Shown here one piece after another: positions 1,400 through 43,515 of a stretch of DNA of 64,000 nucleotides; position 1 is the stretch's first letter, and each line of letters starts with the position of its first letter. Source of the DNA: Candidatus Poribacteria bacterium (lineage in GTDB: Bacteria; Poribacteria; WGA-4E; PCPOR2b); NCBI GenBank assembly GCA_965222435.1, contig OZ244950.1:1185915-1249914 (forward strand), written 5' to 3'. A model generated the notes under the pieces. It ran no database searches. It was not told the DNA's origin and saw nothing but the letters and a program-made list of their open reading frames with translations. The translations under genes were made by a program, and so were the position numbers.

Positions 1400-1650
1400 T
1401 AGGTAGCAACTTACGTTATTCTATTCAAGGATAATAACCCTATCTGTTCTGTAGTTTAGCAGAGAGGATTTACAGAGTCAAGGCAAACGAAAGTTGACAT
1501 ACTCCCCGCCCTGAAGGAGGGGTATTCTTGTGTCCTTCAGTAACGGTGATTGTGCTATCAACAAGGACAGCCAGCCGAAGATGGTCTTACGTCCTCTCCT
1601 TCAAGGGTTGATGCCCCAACCCTGTAGATGTTAATTGCAGCGTTTCTATC
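1400..1650 (-). ncRNA. Candidate TnpB omega/reRNA region (3' end of tnpB plus the downstream right end)
   Basis: By analogy with IS200/IS605 TnpB elements. An 8-bp hairpin CTGAAGGA...TCCTTCAG and GTCAA...TTGAC lie just downstream of the tnpB stop. Boundaries are not determinable from the sequence alone. Confidence 0.3.
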
Positions 1651-2730
1651 ACGGTCATGGATAGCACCACAATCAGCACACTGCCAAGCTCTATCATGTA
1701 GGTTCAACGCTTCATTCACGGTGCCGCAAGCCGAACAGGTCTTACTCGAAGGATACCACTTGTCTATGAAGATGATTTTTACACCTTTTTTGTCAGCGAT
1801 ATACACCAATTTCTTGACGAAATCGGCAAAGCCTAAGTCACTAACTTTGCGTCCCCAAAGGGCTTTCATGCCTGTGAGGTTCAAATCCTCAAGACGTATT
1901 TCGTCGTATAGGTCCGTGAGCTCGTGTGCAAGTTTCCAGTGGAAGTCCTCTCGTTGGTTGCCTATCTTACGATGTTTGCGTGCTAAATCAAGTCTTGCCC
2001 GTTCACGGTTCTTTGACCTTTTCTTGGTTCGTAAATGGTTGCGATTGGCACGTTTGATAGCATTGATACTCCGTTTGAAAAACAGAGGCGATTCTATATC
2101 ATGTCCGTTAGACCCGGTGAGATACCGTTTTAGACCGAAATCAAAGCCTGCGATTTTACCCGTCATGACCCGATTCAGGTCTGGTTCTACATGGTCTGTT
2201 AGCACACAGATATAGATGTCACCTACGGCATCCCGCTTAATTGTGCAACGGTTTGGGTTGCCCAAAATATCACGGGACTTGAAATACTGATAGATATGTT
2301 TACCGATTTTGATACGATTGCCCGGTAGAAGCTTCCAACCGGCTTGAAGTAATGTGAATGACTTGTACTTGCGACGAGGCTTGAAACGCGGTCTACCCCA
2401 CGCTTTACCTCGCGCTCTCGCTTCAAACATTGCCTTGTAGCCTTTGTCGATACGGGCTGCCACGTCTTGAATCGCCTGGCTCGGAAGTTGATTCCAATGA
2501 GAAAATCGAGGCAATTGTTTGAGTTTAGATATGTGATTTATCAATCTAAACTTGCTGATATATTTGCCATAAATTGCATAATAACGTCGATGGAGGGCAA
2601 CGCAATGATTCCAGACAGAAGCGTGTCCGTCTATGGTCTTATGCAATTCACGATTACCGTGATTAGAATACATTTTGAACTTGTAGGTTTGCATTATGGT
2701 CAGCTTTCTAGCTTTCATATCCTGTTTCAC
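1558..2730 (-). CDS. tnpB: TnpB (OrfB) RNA-guided nuclease of the IS200/IS605 family
   Basis: N-terminus has MQTYKFKMY (the likely true start is at 2694). RuvC motifs are GFDFG, RLEDL and DRDRNAAINI. A zinc finger CSACG...CADCG is present. Confidence 0.9.
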   Translation of the reverse strand: MKQDMKARKLTIMQTYKFKMYSNHGNRELHKTIDGHASVWNHCVALHRRYYAIYGKYISKFRLINHISKLKQLPRFSHWNQLPSQAIQDVAARIDKGYKAMFEARARGKAWGRPRFKPRRKYKSFTLLQAGWKLLPGNRIKIGKHIYQYFKSRDILGNPNRCTIKRDAVGDIYICVLTDHVEPDLNRVMTGKIAGFDFGLKRYLTGSNGHDIESPLFFKRSINAIKRANRNHLRTKKRSKNRERARLDLARKHRKIGNQREDFHWKLAHELTDLYDEIRLEDLNLTGMKALWGRKVSDLGFADFVKKLVYIADKKGVKIIFIDKWYPSSKTCSACGTVNEALNLHDRAWQCADCGAIHDRDRNAAINIYRVGASTLEGEDVRPSSAGCPC

Positions 2731-17256: not shown

Positions 17257-19485
17257 ATGACAGAACTACTCGCTAAAAGCGATCCACCTGAAACGTTGAT
17301 TGAACATACCGAAAACTGCCTCTCGGTCTATTCTAGTATGCGGGAAACGATGCCGTTTCTCGCAGAGATTTCCGGTAAGCGGGATTTCTTTGACCATCTT
17401 TTTTATACGGTTGCCCTTCACGATTTCGGCAAGGCTGCAACCGGATTTCAGGCACAACTCCGATCGGCTGCCGAACGGTGGGGCTTTCGTCACGAAATTT
17501 TATCGGCAGGATTTGTGGTTGGGTTGGATCTACCACCCACAGACAAGCAAGCCATCGGCTTGGCGATTCTAACTCATCATAAAGATATTCGGACACTGAG
17601 AGCGCAATATCCTTGCTTTCCGCCCCAGCAGCCGGGTTATGAAAAATGGAAAGCGGGACTGGCGGAATTAGAACCGAATTGGGATGCCTTGATGCGGATT
17701 CAAGAACAGATCAGTCACTGGTATCCGGGTGATAATTGTCGCTTTACTTCCCTGTGCTCGGTTGATGGGTTCATTAATGGGGATCGGGATTTCCTTGTGC
17801 CATATCTTAACGATTTTGAGGACGGTGAATTGACGGTGTTGCATGGGCGTTACGGTATGTTGTTGCGCGGTTGTATGATTGCTTGTGACCATCTGGCATC
17901 GGCGGGGAAAACCAAGATTTACCGCGCTCTTGATGATTTAGGGGAACATCTTCGCAGGCAAATTGAGCAAAGGGGACGGACGTTTCGAGGTTGGGATCCG
18001 TTTCAAGACGCTGCCGCGAAAACGTCTGGACATCTAATGCTCTCCGCGCCAACTGGTTCTGGCAAGACGGAAGCAGCTATGCTCTGGTCAGACGCAAATG
18101 AAAGTGAATCCCATGGACGGCGCGTGTTTTATGTTTTGCCCTACACCGCCAGCATCAACGCGATGTACGACCGTCTGCTCAATCTCGTTTCCGAAGACCG
18201 CATCGGATTGTTGCACGGCAAGGCGAACTACTTTCTCTATCGCTCAATGGTGGATAGGGAGTACACACCGAGCAAAGCGAGAATCGAAGCCCGGGAAACC
18301 CAAAATCTGACGCGAAAAATTTATAGACCCTACAAAGTGCTGACACCGTTTCAACTGCTCAAAGCCTTTTTCGGTATGCGCGGTTTCGAGATGCAATTTG
18401 CGGAGATGGCGGGTGGTTTGTTTATCTTCGACGAAATCCACGCCTATGACCCGCATACAACCGCACTAATTTTGACGATGGTTGAGAGACTCCGTCGAGA
18501 TTACGGTTCGCAATTCTGCATTATGACCGCGACGATGCCGAGATTCCTCAAAGAGATGTTTGTAACTGCTATCGGCGAAATTACTGAAGTTGAGATGTCT
18601 TCTGAGAAACGGGATCAATTCACTCGCCACCGCGTCCGACTGTTTGACGGCGGAATCCTCAACGCAATTCCAGAGATTACCAAGCGGTTGGAAGGTGGGC
18701 AACGGGTATTGGTAGTCTGTAACACAGTCAAACAAGCGCAGACGGTCTTTGAGCAATTACAGCCGGTTGCTACCAATCCGCAACTGATCCACAGCCGTTT
18801 TATCCTCCGAGACCGTGAACGCATCGAAAAAGAGTTGACCGGTGCTGACTTACTTGTTGGAACACAAGCCGTTGAGGTCTCGCTCGACATTGACTTTGAT
18901 GTGCTATTTTCCGAACCTGCCCCCATTGATGCGCTGATACAGCGATTCGGACGGGTAAATCGCACGGGAAAAAAAGGTATCTGTGACGTATGTATCTGCC
19001 ACGAAGGTGGGGAAAACGATAAATACATCTATTCTATTGATCGGGTGAATCGGACGCTTGATGCGTTTGCTGAAATTGATATCTTGTACGAATCGAAGAT
19101 TCAGTACCTCATTGACACAGTCTACGGTGACGGTTACAACACAAAGGAACAGGAGACATTCGATAATGCTAGAGGACTCTTCAGTCAATATCTACGAAAC
19201 GTCGTGCCGTTCATCGAAGATTCATCAGGGCGCGAGGAATTTACCGGACTCTTCAAAAGCGTGGAGGTTGTCCCTTCGGATTATGAGGACAAATTTCTGA
19301 GACATATCGAAGCAAAAGAATTTTACGACGCAATGGCCTATGTCACCTCGATTTCTGAACAACAATTCGCGCGGCTCCACAAGGAGGGACAATTATACAA
19401 GCAGGAGGGACAATGGTTCGTGCGTGTTCGCTACGATTCTGAGCATGGGCTGGCACTTGATGAGTTGGCGGGGAATCTGTTGTGA
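17257..19485 (+). CDS. cas3: Cas3 HD nuclease-helicase
   Basis: HD motif (LHDFGKA), Walker A SAPTGSGKTEAA, DEAH-like FDEIHAYD. Confidence 0.9.
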   Translation: MTELLAKSDPPETLIEHTENCLSVYSSMRETMPFLAEISGKRDFFDHLFYTVALHDFGKAATGFQAQLRSAAERWGFRHEILSAGFVVGLDLPPTDKQAIGLAILTHHKDIRTLRAQYPCFPPQQPGYEKWKAGLAELEPNWDALMRIQEQISHWYPGDNCRFTSLCSVDGFINGDRDFLVPYLNDFEDGELTVLHGRYGMLLRGCMIACDHLASAGKTKIYRALDDLGEHLRRQIEQRGRTFRGWDPFQDAAAKTSGHLMLSAPTGSGKTEAAMLWSDANESESHGRRVFYVLPYTASINAMYDRLLNLVSEDRIGLLHGKANYFLYRSMVDREYTPSKARIEARETQNLTRKIYRPYKVLTPFQLLKAFFGMRGFEMQFAEMAGGLFIFDEIHAYDPHTTALILTMVERLRRDYGSQFCIMTATMPRFLKEMFVTAIGEITEVEMSSEKRDQFTRHRVRLFDGGILNAIPEITKRLEGGQRVLVVCNTVKQAQTVFEQLQPVATNPQLIHSRFILRDRERIEKELTGADLLVGTQAVEVSLDIDFDVLFSEPAPIDALIQRFGRVNRTGKKGICDVCICHEGGENDKYIYSIDRVNRTLDAFAEIDILYESKIQYLIDTVYGDGYNTKEQETFDNARGLFSQYLRNVVPFIEDSSGREEFTGLFKSVEVVPSDYEDKFLRHIEAKEFYDAMAYVTSISEQQFARLHKEGQLYKQEGQWFVRVRYDSEHGLALDELAGNLL

Positions 19486-19595
19486 TTAGACATTATCTTC
19501 CTCCGACTGTAATAGGGGTTGGGTCACCTAACCCCCACGAACTGAATGCGTAAGCCCTAACTGTATTCAAATTAAACCGAATGAGAGGAGAATTT

Positions 19596-20111
19596 ATGCA
19601 AACCGAAGATCTCACTACAATCCGTGTTACCGGCACAACAATCAACTACCTCTACGTCTGCCCACGAGAGCTCTGGTTCTTTCAGAACCATATTGAAATG
19701 GAACACACCTCAGACCTCGTTTCCATGGGTAGACTCCTACACGAGGAGAGTTACAGCCGTGAAAAACGGAAGGAACGCCCGATCGATGACCGCAGCCTCA
19801 TCGACTTCATTGACAAAGACGGCATCCTGCACGATGTGAAGTCAAGTCCGTCAATGCAGAAGGCGCACAAAATGCAAATGCTTTACTATCTCTATCTGCT
19901 CAAACAGAAGGGTGTGCCGAATCGGAAAGGGGTTATCAACTACCCGCGCCAACGGCGAACCGTCGAGGTCGAATTGACTCCGGAGAAGGAGCGCGAAGTT
20001 GAAGAGGCGATTCAGGAGGTCAAAAGAATTTCTAACCTGCCAACGCCTCCAGATGTAGCCTTTATGAAAGTCTGTAAATCGTGCAGCTATATGGAATTGT
20101 GTTGGAGCTAA
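19596..20111 (+). CDS. cas4: Cas4 RecB-like exonuclease
   Basis: N-terminal Cys (YVCPRELWF) and the C-terminal CKSCSYMELC cluster. The start was moved to the ATG after the RBS GAGGAG (the track start is 19581). Confidence 0.85.
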   Translation: MQTEDLTTIRVTGTTINYLYVCPRELWFFQNHIEMEHTSDLVSMGRLLHEESYSREKRKERPIDDRSLIDFIDKDGILHDVKSSPSMQKAHKMQMLYYLYLLKQKGVPNRKGVINYPRQRRTVEVELTPEKEREVEEAIQEVKRISNLPTPPDVAFMKVCKSCSYMELCWS

Positions 20112-20211
20112 AAATTACTACCCTGATAGGGAAGATTATCAGAAACCGAGTTTTTTCCCTGGTCTCGGAACGGACTTGAAAACTCGGTTTCTCTATCCTT
20201 ACGATCTTCAG

Positions 20212-20268
20212 TTTGTAGTAGCGCAATTCATTGCGCGTCGGACGGGCGATAAATCGCCCTACTACAAA
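20212..20268. repeat. REPIN-like doublet: GTAGTA + GCGCAATtcATTGCGC ... GGGCGATaaATCGCCC + TACTAC
   Basis: Read directly. A single-hairpin copy is at 13335-13356. Confidence 0.75.
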
Positions 20269-20409
20269 CCTATTCATCGGGCGTTGAGGAGTGTGTTCTC
20301 CGGCGATGAATCGCCGAACTACAAGTTGCTTTGAATTCCGATCTCTGCATCCGGGGCTTCGAGCGTCCAACTGGGTACGTTTTATAGAAAATAAAGGAGG
20401 AAAACAACG

Positions 20410-21405
20410 ATGTCTCGCAACTACTACATCAGCCAGTCGGGTAGATTGCGCCGAAAGGATAACACCATCTATCTCGAAAAAGAGGACGGTTCGCGTGTAC
20501 CGATTCCGATCGAGGATGTAGACGCCTTCTATCTCTATGGTGAACTGGACCTGAACACACGGCTTCTCAACTTCATGGCGCAGAAGCATATACCGATTCA
20601 CGTTTTCAACTACTACGGTTACTATTCTGGCACCTACTATCCGCGAGAATATCTCAATTCTGGCTTCCTCACGGTCAAGCAAGTCCAGCACTATGAACGG
20701 AAATCGAGACGTCTGCCGATTGCCCGCGAATTTGTTTCAGCGGCGGTGGCGAATATCCTGCGAAACCTGCGTTACCGTGCGAATCGTGACACCGATTGTT
20801 CCGAGCAGCTGAGCATCATTGAGTCAATTGAAGCCGAGATTTCGCGCGCGCAGAGCGTTGACGAACTGATGGGGTATGAGGGAAATATCCGCGAAACCTA
20901 CTATCGCGCCTTCAACGCCATTATCAACCTACAGACCCCTTTTGAGAAGCGGGTCCGCCAACCGCCCGATAACCCCATCAACGCCGCAATTTCGTTCGGC
21001 AATTCGCTGATGTATACCGCCTGCCTGACGGAGATCTATCGAACACAACTGAACCCAACAATCAGCTTCCTGCATGAACCGGGGCAACGTCGATTCTCTC
21101 TGAGCCTCGATCTGGCGGAAATCTTCAAACCGATTATTGTTGATCGAGTGATTTTCCGGCTGTTCAATCGGGGACAACTCAAAGAGTCGAAGCACTTTGA
21201 AACCGAGATGGAGGGCTGCTATCTGAACGAGAGTGGGAGACAACTGTTTCTCCAAGCGTTTGATGAGCAACTCAAGCAGACAATCGATCATCGAAAGTTG
21301 AAGCGAAAAGTGTCCTACCAACGCTTGATCCGCCTTGAATGCTACAAGTTGATTAAGCATTTGACAGGCATGGAAACCTATCAAGCATTTCGGGCGTGGT
21401 GGTAA
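20410..21405 (+). CDS. cas1: Cas1 integrase
   Basis: 331 aa; typical N-terminus YYISQSGRLRRKDNT and conserved acidic/His region; sits between cas4 and cas2. Confidence 0.9.
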   Translation: MSRNYYISQSGRLRRKDNTIYLEKEDGSRVPIPIEDVDAFYLYGELDLNTRLLNFMAQKHIPIHVFNYYGYYSGTYYPREYLNSGFLTVKQVQHYERKSRRLPIAREFVSAAVANILRNLRYRANRDTDCSEQLSIIESIEAEISRAQSVDELMGYEGNIRETYYRAFNAIINLQTPFEKRVRQPPDNPINAAISFGNSLMYTACLTEIYRTQLNPTISFLHEPGQRRFSLSLDLAEIFKPIIVDRVIFRLFNRGQLKESKHFETEMEGCYLNESGRQLFLQAFDEQLKQTIDHRKLKRKVSYQRLIRLECYKLIKHLTGMETYQAFRAWW

Positions 21406-21429
21406 AACAGAGAAAGGTGTAATTCTTTC

Positions 21430-21500
21430 GTAGGGGCGGGGTTTCCCCGCCCATTGGCCACGGCGATGAAACCGTAGGTCGGGCCTTCTAGCCCGACCTA
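21430..21500. repeat. Two GTAGG-type REP hairpins in the cas1-cas2 gap
   Basis: GTAGGGGCGGGGTTTCCCCGCCC and GTAGGTCGGGCcttctaGCCCGACCTA; related to modules of the 310-bp composite repeat. Confidence 0.75.
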
Positions 21501-21541
21501 AAACCCGTGTTTATCTAATGGTCAAACAGGAGGAAATTATA

Positions 21542-21805
21542 ATGTACGTTATTATCGTTTACGATATTGATGTGAAACGGGTCGCAAAAGTCTGCAAATA
21601 TCTACGTCAACACCTCAATTGGGTCCAAAACTCTGTCTTTGAAGGTGGGTTGACAAAGGCTCAATTGGCACGAGTCAAATCAGGGCTTTTGACAATCATT
21701 GACGAAGGTGAGGATTCTGTACTCATTTACCAAATGCGCCATGAGAAATGGATGGACAAACAGGTCATGGGCATCGAAAAAAATCCGGTGACGAACCTCT
21801 TATGA
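21542..21805 (+). CDS. cas2: Cas2
   Basis: MYVIIVYDI... start after the RBS AGGAGG (the track start 21518 is rejected); 87 aa. Confidence 0.85.
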   Translation: MYVIIVYDIDVKRVAKVCKYLRQHLNWVQNSVFEGGLTKAQLARVKSGLLTIIDEGEDSVLIYQMRHEKWMDKQVMGIEKNPVTNLL

Positions 21806-22008
21806 CAGGGCACGACAAGAAGTTGAAGCGTTTTCCCATAGATGCTGAGTCGTCAACCTCGATTTCTGGGGCATTTTCTTAATCCATAGGGCGGTCTTTT
21901 TGCCTCACTATTATGGATTTGAAGCGTAACCACGCTATCTCGTCAACCCCCCGTCAATTTTGCACAACCGGACGTTGACGATTTTTAAGCCTAACAACAG
22001 TTTTCTCC

Positions 22009-22037
22009 TTGTAGATATAGTGCGGGTTTGATATAAT
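22009..22037 (+). promoter_or_regulatory. CRISPR leader promoter
   Basis: TTGTAG, 17 nt (with TGn), TATAAT. It ends about 20 nt upstream of repeat 1. The leader spans 21806-22058. Confidence 0.45.
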
Positions 22038-22058
22038 ATTCTTCGTCGATTTTTCGGA

Positions 22059-25000
22059 CTTTTAATCGAACCATTGTGGAATTGAAACCGAAGAAAAGCA
22101 GCAAGCGAGCGGAATGGCAGAGCGGCTTTTAATCGAACCATTGTGGAATTGAAACACTACCCTACCGTTGTTAAGACCAACACCTCCTTTTTCTTTTAAT
22201 CGAACCATTGTGGAATTGAAACCTTGCTGGCTGCCGTATTCGTTACGAATCTCGTCCACTTTTAATCGAACCATTGTGGAATTGAAACCCGGTTTTGTGC
22301 TAAAGATTGTTGATAAGACTAGAACTTTTAATCGAACCATTGTGGAATTGAAACCGGATTTGCCGTCTGCTCCGCCTCAGTTGATAGATTTCTTTTAATC
22401 GAACCATTGTGGAATTGAAACACTTTTCTCCATTGGCTTTCCGTGAAGCTTCCTTGAACTTTTAATCGAACCATTGTGGAATTGAAACTTTTCCATACAA
22501 GTATGATAAACCATAATCAACACACTTTTAATCGAACCATTGTGGAATTGAAACTTCATCTAATCGTGGATCGCCCATTGAGACTAGTGCACTTTTAATC
22601 GAACCATTGTGGAATTGAAACAATCTCCCGTAGCAGCGGCTAACAAAACAATCACGGCTTTTAATCGAACCATTGTGGAATTGAAACAGAGATAATAAGC
22701 CAAGATAGTCTTAACCTTGATAGTACTTTTAATCGAACCATTGTGGAATTGAAACTTTCCTCTACCGTCTTGTGCTATCAAACCGGCTAAACTTTTAATC
22801 GAACCATTGTGGAATTGAAACCCGCTTATCCATATCCAGCTTCCGCACAACTCGACACTTTTAATCGAACCATTGTGGAATTGAAACACTGGCATAGGAT
22901 GCGACGGATGCCTCCAGACTTGCACTTTTAATCGAACCATTGTGGAATTGAAACTGCGTACCGTTTCACCGTCTAGATCAACATCTTCATTCTTTTAATC
23001 GAACCATTGTGGAATTGAAACGTTTTAAGTTGTTTTATGTGTTGTCCTTTGTTGGTGTCTTTTAATCGAACCATTGTGGAATTGAAACCTGAATTCTTGG
23101 CTATAGGAAATGTCAATTTAGCCGTCTTTTAATCGAACCATTGTGGAATTGAAACACGGTATAACATTGGTATATCTCCCTATTGTGTTGCCTTTTAATC
23201 GAACCATTGTGGAATTGAAACTTGTGTATCTCCCTATATGCGTTTATAGCCCGCGTGCTTTTAATCGAACCATTGTGGAATTGAAACACAATGCAATTTA
23301 TCAATGTTAATACGCATATAGGGACTTTTAATCGAACCATTGTGGAATTGAAACAGTGGCTAGCGTTTGTAAATTGGCTATCATGCTATTCTTTTAATCG
23401 AACCATTGTGGAATTGAAACGTTAAAAAGTCATCACGCCATGAAACATCCTCTACACTTTTAATCGAACCATTGTGGAATTGAAACTGATTATATCTCCC
23501 TGTTTATAGTCCAGTGGACTTTACTTTTAATCGAACCATTGTGGAATTGAAACACAGTCTGCCAATTGATAGTTTGGATGATGCGACTACTTTTAATCGA
23601 ACCATTGTGGAATTGAAACATTGTAATCTGTTTTCCTAATCCACGTGCCGTCTGGCTTTTAATCGAACCATTGTGGAATTGAAACTTTTATCTCTCCCTA
23701 TAATTAAGATTTTGTTTGCCGTCTTTTAATCGAACCATTGTGGAATTGAAACTTTACCATGATATACATACGCTCTGCTATAGCGTCTACTTTTAATCGA
23801 ACCATTGTGGAATTGAAACATAGTAACCAATGTCTGACCATGTTCGCCGCTTGTAACTTTTAATCGAACCATTGTGGAATTGAAACTGAAGTAAGTGATT
23901 CTTATTTGACTACTACGTTAGACTTTTAATCGAACCATTGTGGAATTGAAACAATCTATATCATACTCATTGCCCGAAACTGCTCTGACTTTTAATCGAA
24001 CCATTGTGGAATTGAAACTTTATCCTTTATAGTTATATCAGAAACGGATAATCACCTTTTAATCGAACCATTGTGGAATTGAAACGATGATCTGACTCTC
24101 CAAGCGTTTCCACTGCGATCCTCTTTTAATCGAACCATTGTGGAATTGAAACATGGCACGCCGTAAAAATCCCTTTAAGCCATCCCGACTTTTAATCGAA
24201 CCATTGTGGAATTGAAACCTTGCTTCTCTGCGAACAGATCCAATTGCATATCCTACTTTTAATCGAACCATTGTGGAATTGAAACACTCATCTATCACCT
24301 TTCCTGCTTCTCCTACTTGGTGCCTTTTAATCGAACCATTGTGGAATTGAAACATGTTTCTTATGACGACATACGCGCCGTTGCGAAACCCTTTTAATCG
24401 AACCATTGTGGAATTGAAACTGGGTTTCGCCACTTTCACGTCCAAACTCTTGAGAACTTTTAATCGAACCATTGTGGAATTGAAACTTCTATGAGAAACT
24501 TGGATTTGAACGGACAGGATAAACTTTTAATCGAACCATTGTGGAATTGAAACTGGTGTAAAGTGATGCGCCATATTGCAAAGCCCGCTGCTTTTAATCG
24601 AACCATTGTGGAATTGAAACAACGAATTTACAAGAAGTGATGGACGTCCGTCTGCGGCTTTTAATCGAACCATTGTGGAATTGAAACTCAACCAGTTCGA
24701 TCTCGCGCCCTTGATAGAGAAGTCTTTTAATCGAACCATTGTGGAATTGAAACACGATTTCGACGGTTTCGGTTTCAACGTGGACTGGTCTTTTAATCGA
24801 ACCATTGTGGAATTGAAACATGCCAATCGCATTGACTGCCTGCTTCGCAGTCATGACTTTTAATCGAACCATTGTGGAATTGAAACACGGACGATAAGCC
24901 CACAGAACTATCTGAACCCTACCTTTTAATCGAACCATTGTGGAATTGAAACATACCAGCATCCCCTACGGCATCTTCGATGATGACACTTTTAATCGAA

Positions 25001-26821
25001 CCATTGTGGAATTGAAACTCTGTGATGCCTTCGATTTTGATTGTCTCTCGTATCACTTTTAATCGAACCATTGTGGAATTGAAACCAGGCTTGCCACTGT
25101 CATCTACGATGACCACATGCCACCTTTTAATCGAACCATTGTGGAATTGAAACTAGCTCACACTGCCGACCCTTGACCCCCAGTTGTCATCTTTTAATCG
25201 AACCATTGTGGAATTGAAACTCCCCTACCGCATCTTCGATGACTACCGACAATTCCGCTTTTAATCGAACCATTGTGGAATTGAAACATTTTCGCTCACT
25301 ATTATAACCTACCACGCCCCGAACTTTTAATCGAACCATTGTGGAATTGAAACCTCTTGCCCGTTATGCTTCGCAATAGCCTGATTAAGCTTTTAATCGA
25401 ACCATTGTGGAATTGAAACATTACTTGCGCGTAGGGCGTGGGCACGCACCAAACCTCTTTTAATCGAACCATTGTGGAATTGAAACTTGCTATGTTGTCG
25501 GCAAACTTTTTATCGCCCAGTTCTCTTTTAATCGAACCATTGTGGAATTGAAACCTGCTGCAAGTGTGATTTGTTGGTTGCTCGTATCCACCTTTTAATC
25601 GAACCATTGTGGAATTGAAACATAGCACGGGTGCCGAACTCAGGGAATCCCGCTTCTCTTTTAATCGAACCATTGTGGAATTGAAACCTCCCCGGCACCA
25701 CCGACTCCAAAGCGTTCAGCAACCCTTTTAATCGAACCATTGTGGAATTGAAACGCGTCCTTGAAAATGCCGCCGCCGTACATTGCAGGCACCTTTTAAT
25801 CGAACCATTGTGGAATTGAAACAACGGCGTTTATTTTCTGAATCAATGGTATAACCTTCTTTTAATCGAACCATTGTGGAATTGAAACAGAAAATCCTTA
25901 TCATCTGTCCCGCCTCCCTCCGCCTTTTAATCGAACCATTGTGGAATTGAAACGTGGTTTCCCACCGGCGCTGCTTTGGATTCCAATTGAGGCTTTTAAT
26001 CGAACCATTGTGGAATTGAAACTAGTTTACTCATCTTGCCTGCTGTCTAAAACTGTTTCTTTTAATCGAACCATTGTGGAATTGAAACTTGCCAGAATGG
26101 ACGGGCAACGCGATAGAGACCTCCGCCTTTTAATCGAACCATTGTGGAATTGAAACATCATCGTACCGGTCTGCGCTACAATATTTTTGTTGACTTTTAA
26201 TCGAACCATTGTGGAATTGAAACTCATACTCGAATTAAAAAGGGGTTGCCAACAGTAAACTTTTAATCGAACCATTGTGGAATTGAAACGCTTTACGTCC
26301 TAGCTGGTTATTTCCAAAGAAGCATGCTTTTAATCGAACCATTGTGGAATTGAAACTTGGAAGATCATCGTTTCGTTTTCTCGTTCCGTGTGACTTTTAA
26401 TCGAACCATTGTGGAATTGAAACAACGCTGTGAACGAGATGTCGATTCAGAGTTTACGTCTTTTAATCGAACCATTGTGGAATTGAAACGAAATCTGCAA
26501 AAATTGAGTTTTTGGCTATTCTGAAACTTTTAATCGAACCATTGTGGAATTGAAACAACGCTGTGAACGAGATGTCGATTCAGAGTTTACGTCTTTTAAT
26601 CGAACCATTGTGGAATTGAAACGAAGTCTGCAAAAATTGAGTTTTTGGCTATTCTGAAACTTTTAATCGAACCATTGTGGAATTGAAACATTGTCAAGCA
26701 AAAAGATAAGATTGTGAAAATGACGCTTTTAATCGAACCATTGTGGAATTGAAACACGCCTTAGGCAATGTGCCCATAGTCCCCAGATCGGCTTTTAATC
26801 GAACCATTGTGGAATTGAAAC
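22059..26821 (+). CRISPR. CRISPR array: 72 copies of the 30-bp repeat CTTTTAATCGAACCATTGTGGAATTGAAAC and 71 spacers (35-39 bp)
   Basis: I located each repeat start by hand (22059, 22126, ... 26792; period 65-69) and noticed no degenerate repeats. The repeat ends in ATTGAAAC (the 8-nt 5'-handle), and the leader is on the cas2 side, so transcription is on the + strand. Confidence 0.97.
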
Positions 26822-40477: not shown

Positions 40478-41581
40478 ATGAAATTTTGGAAAAAGTCTGT
40501 GCAAAATTTCAGTAAAGATGAAGCAAGAAAAGCGGAGATGCTAGAGATTCATACACGCAGAATCCGGGGAGAGAGGTTATCCCGCAAGCAAACCCGACTG
40601 TTAAAGGCAAGCGAACAATATCCAGAACTGGACTCTTTGAAAGAGCTCGTCGATTTTGCACATCACCGTTTCGAGGAAAGAGAAAACGTCAGTCCGCCTC
40701 CTGGCGCGAAACGACGTATCGCTCACAATTTGATGGAGCTGATTGGTCGTGATGCTGCGGAAGATGGCGCGCTGTCAGGAGATGAACTCGGCTTGCAGCC
40801 AGCTTACAGCCCTGATCTGGTCGGAAGTGATAGTGAACTTGCCTTACCACATGTTTCCGGTGATCTGCCGCCGCCAATTCCTGAAGCGGCGGATCCGCTT
40901 AATGAGACCGTCATCCTTGACGATGAAAAGGTCGAATCGGTAACGTCTCCAGTAGAAGAGGCGTGTCACCTGAAATTGAAGGTTGTGCAAGGTGGCGAGC
41001 CTGAACGTGAGTATGACATCTCTTTCCAACCTATGATTATCGGATGTGGGGCTGATGTAGCTGTCCAGTTAGATGCCAACACCCCTGTATCACAGCGTCA
41101 TGCGTTGCTTACCGTTGATGATGATGAACTCCTGATCACAAATCTTGACAGCCATCGCGGTACGTGCGTTGATGGTGCTAAGATTACTGAACCAACACCG
41201 CTTCATGTTGCTTCTAGGATACAGATTGGCGGACAGGTGCTTGAAGTGGTTGCGTTTCGGCGGGATGCTAGTGTCCTTGGTGTCTCCTTTGAAGTCGTAG
41301 AAGGACCAGATGTCGGACAGGTTCACTGGGTCCATTTCAAGGAAATGACAGTCGGGCGCAGCGCAGCGGCGCGAATCAAATTTGCTGATTCAACAGGAAC
41401 CCTCTCCCGCCTACATGCTCGGTTTTATCTGAAAAGCGGCGAGGTATATCTTACCGACCTCGGTAGCAAAAACGGGACTTACGTTGATGGATTTCGTATA
41501 GAAGAGTCAACCGTCATTGAGCAAGGCATGCACATTGGATTCAGTGGAATTGTCTGTGAAGTCATAGACATTGAAGGCTAA
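40478..41581 (+). CDS. Protein with two FHA domains (possible partner or anti-sigma of the ECF sigma)
   Basis: FHA signatures: IGCG...VSQRHALL...NLDSHRGTCVDG and VGRS...LSRLHARF...DLGSKNGTYVDG. Confidence 0.7.
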   Translation: MKFWKKSVQNFSKDEARKAEMLEIHTRRIRGERLSRKQTRLLKASEQYPELDSLKELVDFAHHRFEERENVSPPPGAKRRIAHNLMELIGRDAAEDGALSGDELGLQPAYSPDLVGSDSELALPHVSGDLPPPIPEAADPLNETVILDDEKVESVTSPVEEACHLKLKVVQGGEPEREYDISFQPMIIGCGADVAVQLDANTPVSQRHALLTVDDDELLITNLDSHRGTCVDGAKITEPTPLHVASRIQIGGQVLEVVAFRRDASVLGVSFEVVEGPDVGQVHWVHFKEMTVGRSAAARIKFADSTGTLSRLHARFYLKSGEVYLTDLGSKNGTYVDGFRIEESTVIEQGMHIGFSGIVCEVIDIEG

Positions 41582-41649
41582 CTAGCATCAATCCCAATGC
41601 TTTAGCGTTGGGTCCAACCCCGTTAGTCTTGTTTGGTCGTTAAAAAACG

Positions 41650-41678
41650 TTGATATTGTAAGTCCAAACTAGTATAAT
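41650..41678 (+). promoter_or_regulatory. Near-consensus sigma70 promoter of the orphan structured RNA
   Basis: TTGATA, 17 nt, TATAAT. Confidence 0.6.
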
Positions 41679-41684
41679 TGTTGT

Positions 41685-42163
41685 AACCCGGTGGGAGCAT
41701 ACGACTCTCTGAGCCTTCAGAGGGCTCCCACACTCCAGTCGTATGGAACGGGTTATCGGGTTAAATCCGATAATTAAGTAGAATACCTTTGTGCTATTAT
41801 CATAGCACCACTACTAAGATTGTTAGGTGATACCTAACAATCCCTGTCGTGGCGGGACACGCCAAGACATTAAACGCCTGTGGAGGGATAGTAAGACCAC
41901 ACCAGTAGCACGTGGCATGTCTCACTGAAGCAGGAATACGGCAGGGGTGCCCTTCGGGGCACACCCGTAAGTCCATTAAAGAACCCCAAGCATTTATGCT
42001 TGGGAGTAGGTCAGCACATTTAGCCAATGAGTCAGCCTGCGATTTCGTGATGCAGCACAATGGAAATAAACAGATAGGTTCGGGCATATACAATGCAATG
42101 CCCATCATTATATACCGCATTTTTCTTCCCGCTATTGAGCGGAAAGGGGGATGCGGTTTTTTT
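41685..42163 (+). ncRNA. Unclassified structured RNA of about 480 nt
   Basis: It has its own promoter and terminator and no credible ORF. At least 8 perfect helices of 6-11 bp are present, including a UUCG-capped stem (GTGCCCttcgGGGCAC) and an 11-bp stem (GATTGTTAGGTgatACCTAACAATC). Confidence 0.55.
42114..42163 (+). terminator. Intrinsic terminator of the structured RNA
   Basis: ACCGCAT...CCGC...GCGG...ATGCGGT followed by T7. Confidence 0.65.
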
Positions 42164-42390
42164 CTATTTAAATTTTGAATCGTCTAAGGTATAATAGTCC
42201 AACTTATGGTGAATTCTAAAAATAAATAGGCACTTTCGCCCCCGGTAGGTGCGGTTTCCTAACCGCACCGGTTTGGAGTGCCTCATTAATTCTAAGATCC
42301 ACTATAAATGACTGTTAAATCCTGCATATCCCCTGTTCCACAGTCTGACAGTTAAGTGAGGAGGAGGAGTTTAATCCTCATCAGCCATCC

Positions 42391-43515
42391 ATGAGTCAGA
42401 ACCAAGCTGCTTTCACCCATTTTAACCGTGCTGCAAATCTTTATCGGCAAGTCCACTATGCCCAAGCCGTTCAATATTATTTGGCGGGCTTAGAAATCGA
42501 TCCGATGTGTGTGGAGGCGTATGCAGACTTGGCGAAGGCGTATGAAAAATTAGGGTGCTGGAATCAGGCGATTGAATCGCTGGAGACTGCGCTAAAGCTA
42601 CGTCCCGGTTATCCAACTGCCCTTCGCCGCAAGGAACGCATTCTCGAAGAGAAAAGTGTTTATGATAGCTTAACCGATGAACTAAATCTAGCCCTTGATG
42701 CCACCGACCAACATCAGCCAACCGATGCCGTTCAGGTGGAACACTCTCGGAACGGAGATGGCATCTCCAAAATCGAACACGAATTCTTTACGCTCACTGG
42801 TAGGCGCACAATCCCGCAGAGCCTATTATTAGTCGTATCCCAAATCATCGAACACACCTATCATGAGGTTGGCAAAGCTTTCCAGTGCCATCCGCAATAC
42901 AAGGTTCCTATTTTTATTGAAGCTGCCAATCAAATGGATACGTCACAAGTTGCAACGCCGGTGGACAGCACAACATCTCCGATTGAAGTTGCAAATCACA
43001 CACTGTTTTCGGAGGCTTCTCTCCCACAATGGGCGGTCGCCTGCTATGACAATGGGAGCATTCGTCTGACTTACCGTCCTTATGGCGATTCCAGTATCGG
43101 CGTTTTATACGCAGTCATCCGCCACGAATGGACGCATCTCCTCGTTGACCTTCTAGCGAAGGGACGATGTCCCAACTGGCTTGACGAAGGACTCGCTCAA
43201 TTTGTAGCACGCCCGTTGATGAACTCCGAGAAGACACAGTTACAACAGGCAAGTCGAGATAAACATCTCTTACCTCTCCACCTTCTGCAAAAACCGTTTC
43301 ACCACCTTCCGGAGAAGCAACGCCGTTTAGCGTACCTCCAGTCTTACGCAATCACCAAATACTTGATACAGCAATTCAACTTTGCTGCACTCCGAGATGT
43401 TCTCAAACACCTCGGCGACGGAGGATCGACTGATACTGCACTTCAAGAGGTGTTCGGGAAAACAGCGAAAGAAATCATCGTCGCTTCAAGCGCGGAGAAT
43501 TGCATGACCGTCTAG
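42391..43515 (+). CDS. TPR plus HExxH (peptidase-MA-like) protein
   Basis: N-terminal TPR units and the HEWTH motif. Confidence 0.55.
   Translation: MSQNQAAFTHFNRAANLYRQVHYAQAVQYYLAGLEIDPMCVEAYADLAKAYEKLGCWNQAIESLETALKLRPGYPTALRRKERILEEKSVYDSLTDELNLALDATDQHQPTDAVQVEHSRNGDGISKIEHEFFTLTGRRTIPQSLLLVVSQIIEHTYHEVGKAFQCHPQYKVPIFIEAANQMDTSQVATPVDSTTSPIEVANHTLFSEASLPQWAVACYDNGSIRLTYRPYGDSSIGVLYAVIRHEWTHLLVDLLAKGRCPNWLDEGLAQFVARPLMNSEKTQLQQASRDKHLLPLHLLQKPFHHLPEKQRRLAYLQSYAITKYLIQQFNFAALRDVLKHLGDGGSTDTALQEVFGKTAKEIIVASSAENCMTV

Follow-up and report, generated by a model that had tools for sequence, protein, structure and literature searches.

The locus and the sequence at 41685-42163

In a 64,000-nucleotide (nt) stretch of DNA from Candidatus Poribacteria (the window, to whose numbering all positions refer unless another locus is named), the region studied here is surrounded by genes for an ECF sigma factor, an FHA-domain protein, a TPR/peptidase-MA protein, CvpA and RsmE. 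Between the ECF-sigma/FHA operon and the TPR-peptidase gene lies the sequence 41685-42163, which a preliminary description had read as a single orphan RNA gene of about 480 nt, highly structured and with its own promoter and terminator. We found instead that this "480-nt RNA" is a chimera of a mini-transposon and the 3' untranslated region (UTR) and terminator of the neighboring operon: 41685-42014 are part of a mobile insertion that the closest relatives lack, whereas 42015-42163 are host DNA either way. The insertion as a whole spans 439 base pairs (bp; 41576-42014, Table 1). It is very probably a non-autonomous element that resembles the palindrome-associated transposable elements (PATEs) of the IS200/IS605 group, derives from a tnpB-only, IS1341-type insertion sequence and carries a standalone TnpB omega RNA (also named right-end element RNA, reRNA, or sense overlapping transcript RNA, sotRNA).

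Much of what had been described at the level of individual features holds. The promoter TTGATA-17-TATAAT matches the consensus at 11 of 12 positions and is the top site in a 2-kb scan, and every helix that had been listed is present in the sequence. The 479 nt fold with a minimum free energy (MFE) of -180.6 kcal/mol, compared with -136.4 +/- 5.9 kcal/mol for dinucleotide shuffles (n=100; z = -7.5, none of the 100 as good). The terminator at 42114-42163 appears in the MFE fold as a long hairpin followed by T7 and is kept in ~15 related genomes; a simple terminator scan did not list it. There is no credible open reading frame (ORF), the frames of 88 amino acids (aa; plus strand) and 106 aa (minus strand) being without support.

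The sequence was also said to be neither RNase P, tmRNA, 6S nor SRP RNA, and this too is borne out. A cmscan of the whole window against Rfam (version 15) assigned no family at gathering score, and ARAGORN reported no tRNA or tmRNA. In a permissive Rfam scan of 41500-42400, RNase P, tmRNA, 6S, SRP, OLE, GOLLD, HEARO, ROOL and raiA gave no match up to E = 10, and weak matches to BjrC68 (E 1.2) and TeloSII_ncR30 (E 3) were dismissed as noise. The same scan gave a match to HgcC (RF00062) at 41945-42025 that, with 24.8 bits, falls below the gathering score of that family (50 bits), as does an HgcC match of 33.8 bits in a metagenome locus (L138). These sub-threshold matches are explained by the right-end tetraloop of IS1341 elements, which HgcC shares (PMC4615843). 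No second copy of the RNA occurs elsewhere in the window. The proposal of a structured, noncoding, promoter-driven RNA therefore stands, but that of a large noncoding RNA (ncRNA) of a new or rare class does not, as the core belongs to the known class of TnpB omega RNAs. Nor is it an orphan, since this core has homologues among the RNAs located just after tnpB genes.

A precise insertion with IS200/IS605-type ends

Homologues of the TPR protein assign the window to Candidatus Poribacteria. We searched 79 syntenic Candidatus Poribacteria loci (L001-L079) by nhmmer, using the 479 nt as query (query position 1 is window position 41685), and recovered a mosaic of two histories and not one conserved unit of that length. 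Query positions 328-478 (42012-42162) are found at the syntenic site in L001-L016, whether the element is present or not, and in 13 relatives they are the only part matched there. Positions 1-327 are matched only in L005, L006 and L020, three loci that hold additional copies of query positions ~150-335 elsewhere.

The boundaries of the insertion follow from the empty sites in L001 and L002, where the sequence ATTGAA|CACATTTAGCC is uninterrupted (the TPR protein of L001 is 95% identical to that of the window). The FHA gene ends in both as ...GACATTGAA|CACATTTAGCCAATGAG..., and the window has 439 extra bases at exactly that junction, an insertion that altered the last two codons of the gene. The insertion has neither a target-site duplication nor terminal inverted repeats. 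The two subterminal hairpins (Table 1) are alike and lie on the same strand, and the left-end motif is also found in the mini-elements of L005, L006 and L020. IS200/IS605 "peel-and-paste" transposition is recognized by subterminal palindromes on the same strand, a short specific target, seamless empty sites and the lack of a duplication. Thus, 41576-42014 is a precise insertion with IS200/IS605-type ends. No protein gene lies between these ends: every ORF of at least 30 aa that overlaps the element is either shorter than 40 aa or straddles a boundary, and tblastn detected no TnpB-coding sequence within 41576-42014.

The sister copies show the same target preference. The mini-element of L006 occupies the same junction as that of the window, the one in L020 lies ~50 nt further downstream, 3' of GCAATGAA, and the one in L005 is located downstream of the terminator, 3' of ATTTTGAA. 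The four occupied sites represent three positions, all of them 3' of TTGAA or ATGAA and all with seamless empty alleles. The elements of the window and L006 share only 60% identity, whereas their two flanks share 90% and 81%. Because the element has diverged far beyond its flanks, the two loci appear to have acquired different members of the subfamily separately.

RNAs homologous to the core lie downstream of tnpB genes

Copies of the 3' half of the element are found directly after tnpB genes in L006 (2644-2843), L020 and L005, where they run to the right-end hairpin and then GTCAA. In all three loci, homology to the scaffold already begins within tnpB, ~28 nt ahead of its stop codon. The linked tnpB product (396 aa) carries the Pfam domains OrfB_IS605, Cas12f1-like_TNB and HTH_OrfB_IS605, and the TnpB of L006 matches ISDra2 TnpB (8H1J, 8EXA) with E = 9e-51. 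A tnpB gene able to serve this type of scaffold would be expected to run at its 3' end into AAACGCYTGTGGAG...GTCAA, together with an extra ACGG-GGGGTGCCC hairpin.

The association with tnpB extends well beyond Poribacteria. With the 20-base core motif of the scaffold, AAACGCNTGTGGAGNGANNGTAAG, we found at least 120 metagenome contigs (L080-L199), mostly from soil. The upstream region was evaluated only for the 90 listed contigs with at least 400 nt upstream; in 73 of these a TnpB-like ORF on the same strand ends a median of 5 nt before the motif, and in the other 17 an upstream tnpB is absent. Among these 17, L127/L139 and L107 have the layout of promoter, leader and omega RNA seen in the mini-element of the window and look like mini-elements themselves, so this kind of derivative is recurrent. 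The core motif occurs in at least two length classes, one of ~117 nt and one of ~155 nt with an extra internal hairpin, and no Rfam 15 family captures the omega RNAs of these metagenome loci at gathering score.

We built a covariance model (R1) from nine soil sequences of the long class, none of them from the window (alignment A4; 40 pairs by RNAalifold, 22 with compensatory changes). A MAFFT alignment that mixed the short and long soil classes (A3) was dropped as its right-end hairpin was misaligned. R1 matches the window over the full model, and its match ends at position 42014, the same right boundary that the comparison with the empty sites gives (42014|42015). Across 106 R1 matches (alignment A6), 94.9% of the cells pair, compared with 31-52% when the partners are slid, and 35 of the 40 pairs show compensatory double changes; none of 500 shuffles reaches the observed values. 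As an internal control, R1 also matches the 3' end of the unrelated tnpB gene encoded in the window (1494-1623, minus strand, 36 bits). The core at 41845-42014 is thus homologous and structurally equivalent to the RNAs located directly after tnpB genes.

Promoter, leader and additional hairpins

The 5' part of the element also points to tnpB. In the mini-elements of L005, L006 and L020, the left-end hairpin is likewise followed by a -10 box (TATAAT or TATACT), and one is found at the equivalent place in full-length tnpB elements (L006 near 1470; window 2800-2790, minus strand). In L006 and in the window, the tnpB gene is preceded by a -10 box and then a GGGAG...CUCCC hairpin, and nhmmer aligns the leader part of the L006/L005 mini-elements with the 5'UTR of the tnpB gene in the window (2813-2708, minus strand; E = 1.4e-7). 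As both promoter and leader match those of full-length tnpB elements, the mini-element is best described as an internal-deletion derivative. What remains is the left end, followed by the promoter and 5'UTR hairpin of tnpB, the final ~28 nt of that gene, and the whole right end with the omega scaffold; the rest of tnpB is lost.

Between leader and scaffold lie three perfect hairpins (41754-41842) that have no counterpart in the L005, L006 and L020 copies; the 5' module of the element is 51% identical to that of L006. We treat these hairpins as element-specific filler; that they add a function to the guide RNA is conceivable but highly improbable. The idea that the first 160 nt constitute a distinct ribozyme or intron was rejected: they have no Rfam match, their first hairpin is the homologue of the tnpB 5'UTR hairpin, and the rest is not kept in the sister copies.

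One of the window hairpins, TATCGGGTTAAATCCGATA (41754-41772), resembles short palindromes of the form CCCGAT(A/T)AATCGGG. Such units occur in L006 (2676-2706 and 1280-1325) and in the 5' leader of the TPR gene of L001; some are nested in other elements, and one lies inside the L006 omega RNA, just past the tnpB stop codon. They may constitute a repeat family in Poribacteria similar to repetitive extragenic palindromic (REP) sequences.

A second mini-element without tnpB is present in L006 (10765-11218) and shares this layout. Its left-end hairpin is followed by a -10 box (TATACT), a leader hairpin of the form GGGATAG...CTATCCC, a structured but different interior, and a right-end hairpin with GTCAA. 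It was missed by both nhmmer and R1.

Table 1. Coordinates of the mini-element, its parts and related features in the window, with the observation on which each rests
Feature	Position	Strand	Basis or remark
Whole mini-element, 439 bp, protein-less, IS200/IS605-type, very probably PATE-like	41576..42014	+	Precise insertion by comparison with L001 and L002
Target pentanucleotide (transposon-adjacent motif, TAM) TTGAA; host DNA, last codons of the FHA gene	41571..41575	+	Empty sites in L001 and L002
Left-end subterminal imperfect hairpin CCCAATGC-TTTA-GCGTTGGG (CCCAATGCTTTAGCGTTGGG)	41593..41612	+	17 nt inside the left boundary
Sigma-70-type promoter TTGATA-17-TATAAT, retained tnpB promoter	41650..41678	+	11/12 positions
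Leader hairpin GTGGGAGC...GCTCCCAC, homologous to the tnpB mRNA 5'UTR hairpin	41691..41731	+	Sequence comparison
Three perfect hairpins TATCGG/CCGATA, GTGCTAT/ATAGCAC and GATTGTTAGGT/ACCTAACAATC	41754..41842	+	Read from the sequence
TnpB omega RNA (reRNA/sotRNA) scaffold, 170 nt	41845..42014	+	R1 93.6 bits, E = 1.2e-22, full model
Right-end subterminal hairpin CCCAAGCA-TTTA-TGCTTGGG (CCCAAGCATTTATGCTTGGG)	41985..42004	+	Followed by 10 nt, AGTAGGTCAG, to the boundary
Predicted guide segment CACATTTAGCCAATGAGTCA	42015..42034	+	Flanking host DNA, same as the empty-site target next to TTGAA
Host 3'UTR of the ECF-sigma/FHA operon with intrinsic terminator (42114-42163)	42015..42163	+	149 nt, outside the mobile element
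Full-length tnpB-only (IS1341-type) element, right end CCCCTCCTTCAGGGCGGGGAGTATGTCAA	1494-2890	-	Related copy in L001, 3432-3579
tnpB of the window, 390 aa, Pfam OrfB_IS605 and Cas12f1-like_TNB	1558-2730	-	Own promoter and 5'UTR hairpin, ~2800-2740

Predicted guide and proposed mechanism

In characterized systems, the guide of TnpB is the DNA that flanks the right end of the element (PMC8612924; 10.1101/2023.03.14.532601). The scaffold in the window ends exactly at the transposon boundary, so the RNA is expected to continue into the flanking DNA, CACATTTAGCC..., which is different at each insertion site. Published TnpB systems suggest a guide length of 16-20 nt.

The omega RNAs that PATEs often carry have to work in trans (10.1101/2023.03.14.532601), and standalone omega RNAs act in trans with compatible effectors (Altae-Tran et al. 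2021, as summarized in PMC10691335). Gomes-Filho et al. (PMC4615843) reported RNAs at the 3' ends of IS1341-type tnpB genes, a transcribed PATE, and the right-end tetraloop shared with the Rfam family HgcC. Standalone omega RNAs on protein-less IS200/IS605 derivatives have thus already been described, and what lies in the window is a selfish element and not a new class of RNA.

By analogy with these systems, binding to TnpB and TAM-dependent cleavage are the predicted functions of the 41845-42014 RNA. The promoter would transcribe leader, scaffold and guide through to the host terminator at 42163, giving a primary transcript of ~479 nt. A compatible TnpB from elsewhere in the genome would bind the scaffold, and the RNA would be trimmed to the scaffold and a guide of ~16-20 nt (42015 to ~42030-42034). 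The resulting ribonucleoprotein could then cut element-free copies of the locus, where TTGAA is followed by CACATTTAGCC..., and recombinational repair from an occupied copy would restore the element. For a TnpB of the L005/L006 type loaded with the guide of the window, the predicted targets are NTGAA-CACATTTAGCCAATGA. At the occupied locus, the target is preceded by GGTCAG in place of the TAM and would thereby escape cutting. For the element to move, a Y1 (HUH) TnpA would have to be supplied in trans.

Weighing the interpretation

Several observations weigh against an active guide RNA on a mobile element, or lessen the force of the evidence given above. The metagenome loci were fished with a motif derived from the window, so this 20-nt stretch matches by construction, and alignment A6 was fitted to R1, so its pairing statistics favor the structure. 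The middle of the scaffold (41937-41975) fits R1 poorly, though it forms a hairpin of its own. No cognate tnpB was found in the 64-kb window by tblastn, and use in trans is consequently only a prediction for this genome. The only tnpB in the window shares 35% identity with the L006 type; the omega RNA of this gene, which R1 matches with 36 bits, lacks the long-range CCUG/CAGG helix (helix 2); considered as a partner, this gene is a weak candidate only. Finally, the right end finishes in GGTCAG whereas the consensus of the family is GTCAA, and the window copy may therefore no longer be mobile.

The main rival explanation accepts the same element but takes it for a dead relic whose RNA, if made at all, would be noise that ends at the host terminator. 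The altered right end is in keeping with this, as are the lack of a compatible tnpB in the window (no tnpA was seen there either, though no search was aimed at it) and the three hairpins that the sister copies do not keep. Decay of this family is moreover documented in the same intergenic region of distant Poribacteria, where fragments remain in L048 (5720-5890), L074 (1755-1862) and L061 (1316-1413); the L048 fragment consists of a piece of the TnpB C-terminus (DVNAAINL...) and the first half of the omega scaffold, without the right end. Against a relic, the promoter of the window copy is near-consensus, R1 matches its scaffold over the full model with 93.6 bits and almost every helix is intact, and both end hairpins are preserved. 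In addition, the sister copies in L005, L006 and L020 are diverged yet intact, which indicates that the family was active recently. On balance we consider a dead relic unlikely and prefer the reading of a guide RNA that may still be used in trans.

A different question is whether the location has a meaning for the host. Among 13 R1 matches in 1.04 Mb of Poribacteria loci, seven lie inside this ~0.6-kb intergenic region and represent at least four insertion events. These loci were sampled around the FHA-TPR region, so the clustering is only suggestive. The region between the ECF-sigma/FHA genes and the TPR-peptidase gene could be a true hot spot in which omega-only elements are acquired or kept for a benefit to the host or for population-level homing, a view that we regard as highly improbable. 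In one variant, the element promoter and guide would program a TnpB or a TldR-like protein on this locus; in another, RNA-guided homing would spread the element between co-resident symbiont strains.

The same clustering could be cited for an exapted guide RNA, with which the host or a nuclease-dead, TldR-type relative of TnpB would regulate the ECF sigma/FHA/TPR-peptidase locus, and there are precedents in domesticated TnpB proteins that act as repressors with the help of guide RNAs (PMC10705468). Yet the insertion positions vary and the guides consequently differ, which argues against one conserved regulatory target; most relatives are without any insertion, the loci were picked for containing this region and several of the matches are shared by descent, and no TldR-like gene is adjacent. 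We judge such exaptation to be highly improbable.

A single host-encoded ncRNA of ~480 nt, of a new class and with its own promoter and terminator, is scarcely tenable. The strong folding, the bracketing promoter and terminator and the lack of an Rfam family at gathering score would all fit it, but the 5' 330 nt are missing from the closest relatives at a seamless empty site, the 3' 149 nt are kept independently of them, the 5' part is homologous to tnpB 5'UTRs, and a model built on tnpB-linked RNAs of unrelated soil bacteria recognizes the core. The chance that the region encodes a small protein is negligible: the 88-aa (41912-42178, plus strand) and 106-aa (41800-42120, minus strand) ORFs exist mechanically, but both straddle the boundary 42014/42015 and so cannot pre-date the insertion, among the relatives there are indels and the element may be present or absent, and the variation consists of compensatory base-pair change and is not codon-like.

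Other features of the window

The host segment upstream of the terminator (42015-42113) is well conserved in ~15 relatives and contains two small hairpins, CUGCGAUUUCGUGAUGCAG and GGGCAU...AUGCCC. The only Rfam hit in this segment is a non-significant one to BjrC68 (13.9 bits). The segment could be a 3'UTR-derived small RNA or a regulatory element.

Further downstream, the 5' leader of the TPR-peptidase gene contains a ~100-bp palindromic insertion, GTGAATTCTAAAAATAAATAGGCACTTTCGCC...GGAGTGCCTCATTAATTCTAAGATCCACTATA (42205-42305), that resembles a miniature inverted-repeat transposable element (MITE). It is absent at the equivalent site in L002, L006 and L020, and nhmmer detected relatives of it in L006, L011, L013, L035, L039, L043, L055 and L069.

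The window also encodes a type I CRISPR-Cas locus (17257-26800) that includes Cas3 (17257-19485), Cas1 (20410-21405) and Cas2 (21518-21805). Its array (~22.9-26.8 kb; 30-nt repeat CTTTTAATCGAACCATTGTGGAATTGAAAC, period ~66 nt) accounts for a 5.5-kb stretch without long ORFs.

Significance and comparison with known systems

Biologically, the window contains an ordinary selfish element. For annotation it is a warning that a folded, promoter-driven "orphan RNA" without an Rfam match can be a TnpB guide RNA on a gene-less mini-transposon. It also exposes a gap in Rfam, which has no model that captures at gathering score a widespread and strongly covarying omega RNA class, found with one 20-base motif in at least 120 soil and sponge-symbiont contigs. 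Poribacteria, which are sponge symbionts, would seem to carry active populations of IS200/IS605, TnpB and PATE elements that repeatedly land in the same intergenic region. The compact scaffold with its TTGAA-type TAM could be of interest for genome editing with TnpB.

The ends of the element resemble those of IS608 and other IS200/IS605 members in their one-strand subterminal imperfect palindromes, insertion 3' of a short motif, lack of duplication and seamless empty sites. The hairpins of IS608 lie ~19 and 10 nt from the boundaries, and those of the window element 17 nt (left) and 10 nt (right). Unlike IS608, the window element has neither tnpA nor tnpB inside, and its target is TTGAA, not TTAC.

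The omega RNA of ISDra2 TnpB (PMC8612924; 8H1J, 8EXA) likewise overlaps the 3' end of tnpB and the right end of the transposon and has its guide at the 3' end. The TAM of ISDra2, TTGAT, and the TTGAA/ATGAA found here are both TTGA-type pentanucleotides. The comparison covers this layout, the TAM and the TnpB protein linked to the sister copies, which matches ISDra2 TnpB. In contrast to ISDra2, tnpB is deleted from the window element.

The sotRNAs of IS1341-type tnpB genes and the PATE-derived RNA VNG_R0052 of Halobacterium salinarum, together with the Rfam family HgcC (RF00062; PMC4615843), share with the window RNA the origin from the tnpB 3' end and the right end and a right-end hairpin with a UUxA tetraloop. 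The element of VNG_R0052 is a transcribed PATE whose left and right ends are fused. These examples are archaeal, unlike the window RNA, and HgcC aligns only to the terminal hairpin and tail.

Standalone omega RNAs and PATEs such as the ISGst PATEs (Meers et al., 10.1101/2023.03.14.532601) differ from the window element in that the latter keeps the promoter and 5'UTR hairpin of tnpB joined to the 5' side of the scaffold, which gives a leader-plus-scaffold of ~330 nt, and has three extra perfect hairpins. The host here is Candidatus Poribacteria, and activity is only predicted. Both, however, are protein-less, have IS200/IS605 ends and a guide that flanks the right end, and both depend on TnpB and TnpA in trans.

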